Positions 30,356 to 32,863 of a stretch of 64,000 nt of DNA are shown piece after piece. Below the pieces are notes generated by a model. It made no database searches. It was not told the origin of the DNA and saw only the letters and a list, made by a program, of their open reading frames with translations. Where the stretch lies: the NCBI GenBank assembly GCA_963827165.1, contig CAWGZR010000004.1, positions 128,001 to 192,000 on the forward strand. The letters are read 5' to 3'. The DNA comes from Candidatus Bathyarchaeota archaeon (GTDB taxonomy: Archaea > Thermoproteota > Bathyarchaeia > Bathyarchaeales > Bathycorpusculaceae). Numbering within the stretch: position 1 is the stretch's first letter; every line of letters starts with the position of its first letter. The position numbers and the translations under genes are program-made.

Positions 30356-32863
30356 TTACTTCGCCGGTGCTTTGTCGGCGGGTTTAGCTGCAGGAGCTGA
30401 GGCTGCCGCTTTGCGTTTTAGCATGTTCTCTAAAGTTGGACGAAGCTTGGCGTTTTCGGCCAGTATCTTTTCTTTTCCCAGTTCCTTAAGTTGGCCGCTC
30501 ATTTCCTTGACTATATTGACAAATTTCTCTCCTTCAGCCGACGAAACATAGTCAACCCTTAGTCTTTCCGGGCTCAATCCAAGCTTCTGAAGCATTCCAC
30601 CCAAAGCATCCATGCGCACTTTCATCCTAACGTTTCCAGAGATATAGTGGCAGTCGCTGGGAAGATGACAAGCGGTAATCAACACGCCTCCGACTCCCAG
30701 CCTAAACGCTTCCATAACAAAGTCCCGATCTACCCTCCCAGTGCACATTACCCGTATCGCCCTTGTAGTAGGAGGGTATTCCAGCCGGCTCGTCCCCGCT
30801 CGGTCCGCGCCGGCATAACCTCACCAATTACACATAAACGTCAGTATCTTGTCCTCAGGATCCCTTTCCAGAGCAGCTCTGATTTGCGAGGTTATTTGCT
30901 CATCCGTAAAATGCATCTGAGTTATAGCATCTTGTGGGCATTCAGCAACGCATGTTCCGCACCCATGGCACTGGGCTGCATTAATCTGAGCTGGTTTCCC
31001 CTCAACTGCAGTTATGGCACCAAATGGACAGCTTTTCACGCACACCCCGCATCTTGCTTTTACGTTTCTGCATTTTGCGATGTCAACTATCGAGACTATC
31101 GGTTCTATCGTCCATTTGGGTTGAGAAAGGATCGTTGCCGCCCTTGCTGCCGCACCGCTTCCTTGGGCAACGCTATAGGGTATGTCTTTTGGTCCCTGGC
31201 AAGCACCCGCCAAGAATACTCCGTCCATAGGTGTGTCCATTGGTTTGAGTTTTGGGTGACTCTCCATGAAGAACCCGTCTGATCCTCTCGTTATATGGAG
31301 GATGCCAGCCAATTCTTCGGCTCCCTTGCTGGGTATAGCCGCCGTGCTTAGAACGGCCATCTCCACTTCGACTTCGATGGGCTGCCCCAGCGTCGAGTCC
31401 TCTGCTCGGATAACCAAGTTTTTGGTCTTTGGGTCTTCCAGTATTTGAGATGGCTTTCCCCTGACAAAGATAACGCCCATTTCACGGGCTCTTCGATAGA
31501 ATTCTTCATAACCTTTGGAGGGAGTTCGTATATCAATGTAGAAGATGTAGACTTCCACTTCATTATGGTAGTGTTCTTTCAGAAGGATGGCCTCTTTGAG
31601 CCCGTACATGCAACAGAAACCTGAACAGTATTCGTACTTGTTTACATCCCTTGAACCGACGCATTGAATTATAGCGACGCTCTTCGGTCTTTTTCCATCG
31701 GATGACCGGATTACATGTCCACTTGTTGGGCCGCCCGCTGTGATGAGTCTCTCAAACTCCAAAGCCGTAATTACGTTATCGTATTTTCCGTAGCCGTACC
31801 TTGCATCCTCATATGGTAGATAAATGTCACAGCCCGATGCTACTACGATTGCCCCAACTTCTAAGTCAACTTCTTCTGGCTTTTGGTTAAAGTTAATGGC
31901 TTCACGAGCGCCGCAGGCGTCCACGCATTTGAAGCACTCTATGCAGTAATCCATGTTAATCGAGTAGATGAGAGGCACTGCTTGATCGAACGGAATGGAG
32001 ATGGCTTTTCTTACGCCTAAGTTCATATCCCATTCATTGGGGTATTCTATTGGGCAGGCGTCTTTGCATTCTCCGCAACCCGTGCATTTTTCGGCCATAA
32101 CATATCTCGGGTTCTTGCGAACTTTAACTCTGAAATTGCCTACAAAACCCTCCACCTTGAGGATGTCCGCATTGGTTATTACTTGGACCTTAGGATGGCG
32201 CAATACTTCCACCATCCTAGGTCCTTCAATTCATATGCTGCAATCCAAAGTTGGAAAAGTCTTGTCGAGCTGCGCCATGTGTCCGCCTATGCTCGCGTTC
32301 TTCTCGACAAGGTATACCTCGAACCCCATATTCGCCAAATCCAAAGCAGAGTTGATACCGGCAATACCGCCGCCGATAACCAAGGCGTTTTTGGTTACAG
32401 GGACCTCCATGGTTTCAAGGGGCTTGAGCAACCTCGCCTTGGCAACGGCCATCCTTATAGTATCTTTTGCTTTTGCTGTGGCTTCTTTAGGATCATTGGG
32501 ATGGCACCATGAAGCGAACTCACGTATGTTCGCCATTTCAAACACATAAGGATTTAGTCCTGCTTCACTTACAGTTTTTCGAAATGTTGGCTCATGCATC
32601 CTTGGGCTGCAAGCAGCCACGACAACACGGTTTAATTTGTGTTCTTTTATGGCTTTTCTGATTTCTTCTTGTCCCGGGTCAGCGCAAGTGTAGCGGTTTT
32701 CTTTAACATAGACTACGTCAGGTATGGTTTTTGCGTACTCGGCGACTGAGGGTACGTCCACTGTGCCTGCGATGTTCATACCGCAGTGGCAGACAAAAAC
32801 GCCGATCCGCAGTTCTTCTGGTTTTTGAGTTTCAGGTTGTTTTTTGGCTTCTGGATTGCTCAT
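30356..32863 (-). CDS. hdrA: Selenoprotein HdrA-MvhD fusion (~835 aa, Sec at UGA 32231-32233 and 30821-30823)
   Basis: Three ORF-track pieces share one frame and are joined by [26 protein letters not shown] and [18 protein letters not shown]. HdrA motifs CHCG, ACSP, GGGIAG, QCVGSRD, CSGFCC. MvhD motif RVMCTGRVD. Confidence 0.92.
30784..30814 (-). other. In-frame hairpin 6 nt 3' of UGA no. 2 (candidate SECIS/SRE)
   Basis: GCCGGC/GCCGGC stem, CG/CG, tandem GA/GA, CC/GG. Confidence 0.5.
32185..32224 (-). other. In-frame hairpin 6 nt 3' of UGA no. 1 (candidate SECIS/SRE)
   Basis: GGACCU-AGGAUGG-UG pairs with CG-CCAUCCU-(A)-AGGUCC: 15 bp with one bulge. Confidence 0.6.

Follow-up and report, generated by a model that had tools for sequence, protein, structure and literature searches.

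In-frame hairpins behind both selenocysteine UGA codons of a Bathyarchaeia hdrA-mvhD gene as candidate codon-proximal recoding signals

In archaea, the selenocysteine insertion sequence (SECIS) that goes with UGA codons read as selenocysteine (Sec) is located in untranslated regions (UTRs), and the factor that reads it is given as unknown in reviews of 2022 (PMC9499178) and 2026 (PMC13188914). In Methanococcales and Methanopyrus the element lies in the 3'UTR (in the 5'UTR for fdhA of M. jannaschii), 70 to 1500 nucleotides (nt) from the UGA (PMC9499178), and in Asgard archaea a single one downstream of vhuD is shared by as many as six UGAs across about 2 kb (PMC4989117; PMC11227280). For Bathyarchaeota, the use of Sec and a fusion of PSTK with aSelB are already in print (PMC8762117; PMC9499178), the fusion being reported also for one Archaeoglobus (PMC8762117). 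The 2026 review does not count Bathyarchaeia among the Sec-using archaea (PMC13188914), and PMC8762117 does not use the word SECIS in its main text. Hairpins in frame behind archaeal Sec codons were not found described in the literature searched, which included passages of PMC4989117, PMC11227280, PMC13188914, PMC9499178, PMC8762117 and PMC5424206. Here we describe such hairpins in a stretch of 64,000 nt from Candidatus Bathyarchaeota archaeon (positions 128,001 to 192,000 of contig CAWGZR010000004.1, assembly GCA_963827165.1), called the window below, in which an hdrA-mvhD fusion gene (30356 to 32863 of the window, minus strand) has two in-frame TGA codons, each with a hairpin directly behind it. 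The hairpins are tied to Sec: every Sec-type hdrA has them, whereas orthologues and paralogues of the Cys type do not. Selection holds them at the level of nucleotides, and in related lineages the UGAs of other candidate selenoprotein genes have hairpins in similar places. On balance, we take the two hairpins to be cis-acting, codon-proximal Sec recoding signals, most likely the main mRNA mark by which this lineage tells a Sec UGA from a stop.

The gene has 835 codons, with the TGAs at codon 211 (32231 to 32233, motif DCSIU) and codon 681 (30821 to 30823, motif CNWU), the second of them in the MvhD/FlpD domain. By Pfam, the HdrA part consists of a FAD/NAD-binding N-terminal region and Fer4 domains, and FlpD (MvhD) covers residues 673 to 796. 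The UGAs align to conserved Cys codons and the Sec machinery is encoded in the same genome, which makes the product a member of the selenoprotein HdrA/MvhD (VhuD) group. Behind the first UGA, a 6-nt spacer (AUUGAA, 32225 to 32230, minus strand like all parts of the gene) leads to hairpin 1 (40 nt, 32185 to 32224), which has a 15-pair stem with a bulged A, 2 apical pairs and a variable apical part. The second UGA is separated by a spacer of the same length (GGUUAU, 30815 to 30820) from hairpin 2 (31 nt, 30784 to 30814), in which a GCCGGC/GCCGGC stem is followed by a C-G/G-C step, a tandem GA/GA (2x2) internal loop, a CC/GG step and a 5-nt loop. A preliminary description of the locus, made from the sequence, had already given the coordinates of both hairpins, their identical 6-nt spacers and the tandem GA/GA pairs of hairpin 2, all of which we recovered; the 15-bp stem that it placed at 32185-32224 after UGA-AUUGAA has 15 stem pairs and one bulged A.

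Both hairpins are stable. Hairpin 1 has a minimum free energy (MFE) of -25.4 kcal/mol (z -6.3), a value reached by 0 of 200 dinucleotide shuffles, and it stands out also in a 76-nt context (z -4.6). For hairpin 2 the MFE is -20.9 kcal/mol (z -4.0), with 1 of 200 shuffles equally good; in its 76-nt context it is unexceptional (z -1.55, 12 of 200 shuffles match). An outer helix that pairs the second UGA itself in the 76-nt fold was discarded, as it is broken by synonymous changes in orthologues. The comparison with synonymous-codon shuffles proposed in the preliminary description was carried out with recodings that keep the peptide and follow the genome's own codon usage. The native energy was reached by 0 of 3000 recodings at each site (z -5.9 at site 1 and -4.2 at site 2), so the stems are not given by the amino acid sequence alone. 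The caveat that part of the pairing could follow from conserved residues therefore applies to parts of the stems and not to the stems as a whole.

SepSecS is present in 13 of the 401 genomes of the class, and a search with it led to 13 Bathyarchaeia genome loci, all of them with a Sec-type hdrA-mvhD gene (84 to 92% identical). All 13 have TGA at site 2, and the 12 that extend to site 1 have it there too. Three further genomes (G271, G419 and G280) carry a Sec-type hdrA, and so do 17 of 80 metagenome loci as judged at site 2, 9 of which cover site 1 too. Both UGAs and both stems are kept in all the Sec-type orthologues examined. At site 1 there are 14 variants in 25 locus rows and the stem is almost invariant, the spacer varying at its third base alone (T, C or A). 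At site 2 we found 6 variants in 36 locus rows, with differences confined to the spacer, where they are at third codon positions alone, and to loop positions 14, 15 and 18. The differences fall on third positions of the spacers, loop positions, the bulged A, the terminal pair and the topmost stem pair (G15-C25, which is C.C in 3 variants). Others keep the pairing (A3-U38 to G.U, and U14.G26 to U-A), one A-to-C change permits a register shift, and a 1-nt loop insertion belongs to a frameshifted assembly. As to the covariation across Sec-type orthologues that the preliminary description suggested testing, single changes that keep pairing were found, and no double compensatory change was seen in hdrA.

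The same restraint appears in the codons. We aligned 11 full genes by codon and measured synonymous diversity in windows of 10 codons. Over the whole gene it is lowest in those that begin at codons 680 to 687, and those that begin at 213 to 221 also belong to the lowest set. Of the codons with an invariant amino acid and at least four-fold degeneracy, 14 of 16 in the hairpin spans do not vary in nucleotides either, compared with 29 of 272 outside them (Fisher p = 3e-11); counting stem codons gives 12/12 and 31/276. As this contrast is taken within one set of sequences, shared ancestry bears on both classes alike.

The Cys-type versions of the gene serve as a comparison. An orthologue was found in 100 of the 101 genomes searched of the own order, mostly 70 to 75% identical (61 to 68% in a few, including genus relatives). 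When 39 of these loci were fetched and aligned, Cys was present in 39/39 at site 1 and in all 35 in which site 2 was located, the other 4 being paralogues without the MvhD part; the TGAs first counted in order-level orthologues sit at gene ends. Folded in fixed windows, 21 distinct Sec-type contexts of site 1 have a mean energy of -24.1 kcal/mol (-25.9 to -21.0), against -7.2 kcal/mol (-13.0 to -0.4) for 56 distinct Cys-type contexts. At site 2 the means are -20.8 kcal/mol (-20.9 to -20.4) for 26 Sec-type contexts and -7.4 kcal/mol (-13.3 to -2.1) for 50 Cys-type ones, so that in these windows the two ranges do not overlap at either site. The preliminary description had named equally stable hairpins in Cys-encoding orthologues as what would speak against its proposal, and none were found (best values -13.0 at site 1 and -13.3 at site 2). 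Four loci (L073, L064, L088 and L090) have a Cys-type hdrA-mvhD paralogue, 68 to 73% identical, directly downstream of the Sec-type gene, and these tandem paralogues lack the stems. Such tandem copies are reminiscent of Methanococcus, which has Sec/Cys isoform pairs.

Amino acid replacements at positions otherwise conserved in the Cys-type proteins contributed to building the stems. After the first Sec these are K to R (+5), D to E (+8), N to K (+14, where 53 of 56 Cys-type sequences have N), I to V (+15) and E to Q (+16), and after the second L to R (+7) and F to L (+13). Their presence at conserved positions indicates that the Cys-to-Sec change and the hairpins arose together within a Bathyarchaeia gene. 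The Sec-type clade is shallow (81 to 93% amino acid identity). What we see is a conversion from Cys to Sec caught together with its presumed signal, with stem-forming replacements tolerated at conserved HdrA positions.

Hairpins of the same kind were looked for at other candidate Sec codons by scanning 87 SepSecS-centred loci, with no selection of gene families, for TGAs preceded by 60 or more open codons and followed by 40 or more. Of 405 such open-frame TGAs, 69 had an MFE of -15 kcal/mol or lower between +5 and +54, many of them in redundant hdrA copies. Their first paired base is at +5 (2 cases), +6 (14), +7 (29), +8 (9), +9 (6), +10 (5) or later (4). Among 3000 random in-frame codons, 3.8% reach -15 (3.0% with the first pair between +5 and +9) and 0.3% reach -19. 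As a negative control, conserved TGAs in non-coding frames, obtained by a clustering blind to hairpins, fold weakly. A UGSC-family gene has Sec at the U position of the family and a 14-pair hairpin from +7 (-19.4), NosD-like beta-helix genes have hairpins of -24.5 and -23.5, with one compensatory change from A-U to G-C, and a dockerin protein gene has one of -22.1. In the CFI-box-CTERM family of surface proteins, 8 sequences share 10 consensus pairs from +8, 3 of which show double changes; the paired fraction of cells is 94.9%, compared with 86.4% in shuffles (equalled by 0 of 500) and 25 to 59% after sliding the partner. Distant Sec-using Bathyarchaeia (G132, G184 and G016) combine a Cys-type hdrA with a Sec-type selD and the same PSTK-aSelB fusion, and the selD of G016 has a hairpin of -16.6 at +7. 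In the candidate genes the apical loops begin 19 to 23 nt past the UGA. Taken over all the hairpins, the loops start mostly with G (GAGCG, GAUGU, GAUAU, GAGA, GGCAU), two starting with A (AGA, AGC), a pattern given here as counted. The look at other UGA genes recommended in the preliminary description brought up hairpins (UGSC, NosD-like, CFI-box, dockerin and G016 selD), with weak folds in the selD of G132 and the UGSC gene of L171, so that the second outcome it had named as a refutation, a lack of hairpins behind other Sec UGAs, did not come about. Its spacing of exactly 6 nt applies to the UGSC gene, to the two sites in hdrA and to part of the selD genes, and has to be widened to 5 to 8 nt across families.

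There were also several side observations. Candidate selenoproteins near SepSecS occur at loci L109, L110, L156, L158, L166, L173, L174, L163 and L175, and the candidate motifs are U[GP]x[CY] in the CFI-box-CTERM proteins, GUCDG in the NosD-like ones and PSUGGC in the dockerin one, all three with an N-terminal hydrophobic stretch and a hairpin after the UGA. The tRNA-Sec genes of L163 (6415-6524), L175 (8973-9082) and L154 (5365-5474) are longer than the Rfam model by 22 nt inserted in the T arm, possibly an intron. Beside a Sec-type selD and the UGSC gene, L169 encodes two membrane proteins and a small open reading frame (ORF) with a CPxP motif (3385-5174). Judged by eye from their translations, these may be YedE-like and TusA/SirA-like, and the arrangement suggests a module for selenium uptake or handling. 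The L169 contig is the one presented as the typical Bathyarchaeota Sec cluster in PMC8762117. Three Bathyarchaeia Sec-island contigs (L068, L070 and L071) belong to metagenome-assembled genome records titled Sulfotelmatobacter, Nanoarchaeia and Limnocylindrales, and are probably mis-binned.

Directly beyond the 3' end of hdrA lies a compact Sec island. It contains tRNA-Sec with anticodon UCA (29457 to 29540, minus strand; found by ARAGORN and matching Rfam RF01852 with 64.5 bits), SepSecS (28106 to 29452, plus strand; Pfam PF05889, E = 4.6e-116) and a PSTK-aSelB (EFSec) fusion of 731 amino acids (25706 to 27901, minus strand), identified by its Pfam domains and by selB TIGR00475 above cut-off. 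The domains of the fusion are KTI12 (residues 8-219), GTP_EFTU (277-443), D2 (468-533), aSelB_III (546-641) and, weakly, eEFSec_4th (645-718). No SelB winged-helix family was matched in it at a Pfam E of 0.01 or lower, in keeping with the preliminary description, and the precomputed domain lists of 120 PSTK-aSelB homologues contain none either. The fusion is found in all the distant Sec-positive loci inspected and also in at least 120 protein clusters of about 720 to 740 amino acids. The combination anticipated in the preliminary description, codon-proximal SECIS- or SRE-like elements working with archaeal-type machinery, is supported, with conserved Sec-specific hairpins on one side and SepSecS and PSTK-aSelB on the other. 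The genome also encodes SelD and has one hdrA copy, the Sec-type one. No in-frame TGA was found in its SelD, NiFeSe hydrogenase, AhpC-TSA or other FlpD genes, and Molybdopterin gave no match, leaving hdrA-mvhD as the sole selenoprotein gene found among the six families tested. These were family searches; a scan of open frames around TGAs, in which an overlap filter took out the two true sites, and a codon log-odds score, which did not rank them, were both dropped. In G000, the first ~35 kb of contig C10 contain numerous long off-frames that stay open, with translations rich in Arg/Ala, and strong hairpins, which suggests a G+C-rich stretch unlike the remaining genome that may be foreign or contaminant DNA. 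Contigs from three metatranscriptome runs (peat and other samples), 88 to 100% like hdrA, span UGA 2 with hairpin 2 and UGA 1 with hairpin 1, a weak sign that the gene is transcribed. They give no cover 3' of about 30380, where relatives diverge, and are uninformative on the 3' end of the transcript.

An element at a distance from the codons was sought in the flanks of hdrA. On the 5' side, a polyferredoxin gene (32860 to 33816, minus strand) has a stop codon overlapping the hdrA start codon and belongs to the same operon, and upstream of it there are about 740 nt without a long ORF (33817-34555). On the 3' side, the intergenic region has 111 nt (30245 to 30355) and ends at a convergent membrane-protein ORF. 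The 3' flanks of 11 orthologues have no common element, 3/11 being T-rich directly past the stop. GAA..A and AUGA..GA SECIS patterns, used in consensus form and with no positive control for the archaeal GAA/A one, had 0 matches in either flank of these loci (300 nt ahead of the gene and 500 nt behind it); one isolated kink-turn-like match lies inside the coding region of one locus. The kink-turn scan did have a positive control, a textbook Loki-type element in L176/L179 that it recovered. This element (AUGA, a 9-bp helix, an AAAA loop and GA) is near a SepSecS gene whose product is 56% identical to that of the window. Rfam SECIS families gave no match at E of 10 or lower, either in the window from 29500 to 34000 or in 9 loci, a weak negative, since Rfam also missed the Loki-type element of L176. 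In short, no distal element was recognised in the hdrA flanks, and its existence is not thereby denied.

Some candidates from this search were set aside. An AUGA in the 3' flank of the window's gene (about 30313-30316) does not qualify as a kink-turn SECIS, its helix being weak and the motif absent from the orthologues. A hairpin in the hdrA-proximal 5'UTR, with loop AGAAAAGAAGG, is found in just 7 of 11 loci, and a similar one precedes the Cys-type paralogue of L073, so that it is not Sec-specific. The hairpin in the 5'UTR of the polyferredoxin gene does not align to the hdrA-proximal one, and L064 and L068 lack it. A promoter-like motif, CAAGCAAT..TTATATCA, is found before hdrA in L064, L065, L068 and L070-L073 and also before polyferredoxin in the 9 loci that have that gene (in the window at about 33877-33894, minus strand). 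In 7/11 loci the motif is followed by the 5'UTR hairpin with its AGAAAAGAAGG loop and covarying stems. Among Cys-type loci, the motif precedes the polyferredoxin gene in one (L027), and the match in L033 is coding sequence.

How such hairpins would act can be outlined as follows. With UGA in the ribosomal A site, the spacer of 5 to 8 nt would place the base of the stem at the mRNA entrance, with the apical loop about 19 to 23 nt downstream of the UGA; the same argument has been made for readthrough structures with spacers of 7 to 12 nt and for the SEPN1 SRE with its 6-nt spacer (PMC3159437). The hairpin might then recruit or activate PSTK-aSelB:GTP:Sec-tRNA(Sec), directly or via an adaptor, or alternatively slow the action of release factor until the Sec-tRNA wins; there would be one hairpin per UGA. 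Several points weigh against assigning this role to the hdrA hairpins. They have no obvious common motif beyond a stable stem, the spacing and an apical start with G-A, and being so unlike in sequence and shape they do not indicate one specific reader protein, which argues for an SRE-like accessory role or for a non-specific reader. Within hdrA the stems do not vary, double compensatory changes are missing, and this kind of support comes from suppressed synonymous change. Codons 64-75 and 121-136 (A-rich, about 32639-32674 and 32456-32503) are also low in synonymous diversity, which could be codon bias or another element. Outside hdrA, the selD of the G132 lineage folds weakly (-4.6 for +7..+42), as does the UGSC gene of L171 (-11.9), and the 8 CFI-box sequences were drawn from the list of strong hairpins, so that weaker members of the family may exist. 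As an independent test, selD gave an ambiguous outcome: among 10 distinct Sec-type sequences, 4 have an MFE hairpin that begins at +17, the energies of Sec-type selD overlap those of Cys-type selD, and the hairpin spacing follows from the conserved U-x-C-K-L-P motif. AUGA/GUGA...GA motifs were seen by eye in some distant selD 3' flanks (the L180/L154 group, L126 and L163); they could be Asgard-like SECIS, in which case the machinery may also read distal elements. The consensus form of our SECIS patterns, and the lack of a control for one of them, belong with these points.

The strongest rival, which we nevertheless regard as rather unlikely, sees in the hairpins helpers that slow termination, like the selenocysteine redefinition element (SRE) of human SEPN1, Sec being specified by a separate SECIS that we did not recognise, be it in a UTR, in a neighbouring gene or of another type. 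The geometry is that of the SEPN1 SRE, in which a 16-bp stem with a 5-nt loop follows a spacer of 6 nt; that element promotes readthrough even without SECIS (PMC3159437; PMC2248747). The different shapes of the two hairpins would fit a role for stability and position alone, the motifs in selD flanks could provide the separate element, and aSelB is reported not to bind SECIS RNA itself (PMC9499178). However, the 3' flanks of the 11 orthologues share nothing, some becoming T-rich right past the stop, the gene upstream is not constant (polyferredoxin in 9/11 loci, PSTK-aSelB in 2/11), the hdrA-proximal 5'UTR hairpin occurs in part of the loci and also before a Cys-type paralogue, and the pattern and Rfam scans were negative. 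Moreover, the eukaryotic SRE is found at a subset of Sec UGAs, and here there is a hairpin at nearly every candidate examined. With no distal element recognised and a hairpin at almost every candidate Sec UGA, a SECIS-equivalent role is favored over an SRE-like one.

Another explanation would leave the hairpins linked to UGA, with a role apart from Sec decoding, such as the protection of mRNA from cleavage at ribosomes that pause on UGA, or regulation of expression by selenium supply. Their placement at each UGA and their Sec-specificity would also suit an element of paused ribosomes, and the tandem Cys-type paralogue in 4 loci suggests a selenium-dependent use of isoforms. Yet the narrow spacer and the constant loop distance across unrelated families point to the decoding ribosome, and we found no separate recoding signal that would free the hairpins for other duties; we judge this explanation improbable. 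That the pairing has no function and results from residue conservation, biased codon use or recent shared ancestry is strongly disfavored and very improbable. Conserved residues do supply parts of the stems (P, M, H and P at site 1, A-G and S-R at site 2), partial pairings reaching -13 kcal/mol are seen in Cys-type genes, and the Sec-type clade is shallow, but no synonymous recoding equals the native stability, codon invariance differs sharply within the same gene and the same sequences, the stems were created by replacements at conserved positions, and independent families share the placement, with compensatory changes. Least probable of all is that bacterial SECIS elements arrived with genes transferred from bacteria. 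Placement and loop distance do resemble bacterial SECIS, and the UGSC gene, of what NCBIfam lists as a (seleno)protein family, could have come from bacteria with its hairpin, but the 70 to 75% identity of Sec-type hdrA-mvhD to the Cys-type genes of most genomes searched in its own order shows an origin within the lineage, local replacements made its stems, and there is no SelA-type route, no SelB winged helix and no Rfam SECIS match.

The reading of the hairpins as recoding signals suggests that these archaea mark their Sec codons locally, as bacteria do, and not from an untranslated region, and an in-frame hairpin for each UGA would alter the picture of Sec decoding across the domains of life. 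It would offer selenoprotein finders a new search signature for archaeal metagenomes, where the hairpin-based scan made here has already surfaced candidate secreted selenoproteins, and a compact element for probing what archaeal aSelB needs to decode UGA. A bolder proposal, possible and put forward tentatively, is that Bathyarchaeia with the PSTK-aSelB fusion specify Sec solely through in-frame stem-loops 5 to 8 nt past each UGA, a third arrangement that would combine signal placement in the bacterial style with machinery of archaeal/eukaryotic style devoid of a known SECIS-binding domain. If true, the question of what reads archaeal SECIS would become directly testable with a short, portable element, and local elements could be an ancestral or a convergent link between the bacterial and the archaeal/eukaryotic systems. 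It would also explain how Cys codons change to Sec one at a time, perhaps also in genes that come from bacteria.

Among known systems, bacterial SECIS (for example that of E. coli fdhF, read by SelB) are similar to the hairpins described here in being in-frame stem-loops just 3' of the UGA, one per UGA, that vary in sequence from gene to gene and have an apical loop about 20 nt from the UGA (description in PMC4989117 and PMC13188914). Most of the loops seen here start with G, which may correspond to the conserved G (with a bulged U) that bacterial SECIS have in the apical part at a fixed distance from the UGA. Both hdrA hairpins start at +7, and the first pair in the other families is at +6 to +9, a placement like that of bacterial SECIS. 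Unlike bacteria, the Bathyarchaeia host uses PSTK and SepSecS and a factor with archaeal domains III and IV instead of SelB wings; the elements match no Rfam SECIS family, and those of hdrA arose de novo in an archaeal gene. The SRE of SEPN1 (SELENON) is also a conserved stem-loop about 6 nt past a Sec UGA (PMC3159437), and both hdrA hairpins have this position. The SRE, however, accompanies a 3'UTR SECIS and is found at a minority of Sec codons, whereas here we found no distal SECIS.

With the Asgard (Loki-type) and eukaryotic SECIS, there is in common the same selenoprotein (HdrA with VhuD/MvhD), a SepSecS-based archaeal machinery and, in hairpin 2, tandem G.A pairs. A kink-turn SECIS consists of an AUGA...GA non-Watson-Crick quartet flanking a helix of 9 to 12 bp, with an A-rich loop. 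The hdrA elements differ in being in frame and one per UGA, with no AUGA, 3-nt bulge or A-rich loop. The SECIS of Methanococcales and Methanopyrus share with them the archaeal host, GC-rich helices and, for hairpin 2, a purine-rich internal loop. The Methanococcus-type element has two GC-rich helices around a GAA / A internal loop; the hdrA hairpins, in contrast, lie within the ORF, and the GAA/A loop is absent from them. Finally, the 3' stem-loops that promote readthrough in alphaviruses, furoviruses and the Drosophila genes hdc and kelch, and the pseudoknot of murine leukemia virus (MuLV), resemble the hairpins in being stable structures with peaks of synonymous conservation; they are located 7 to 12 nt past the stop codon and are thought to act at the mRNA entrance (PMC3159437). 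In those cases a standard amino acid is inserted by a near-cognate tRNA, whereas in this window tRNA-Sec and its elongation factor are encoded right beside the gene.

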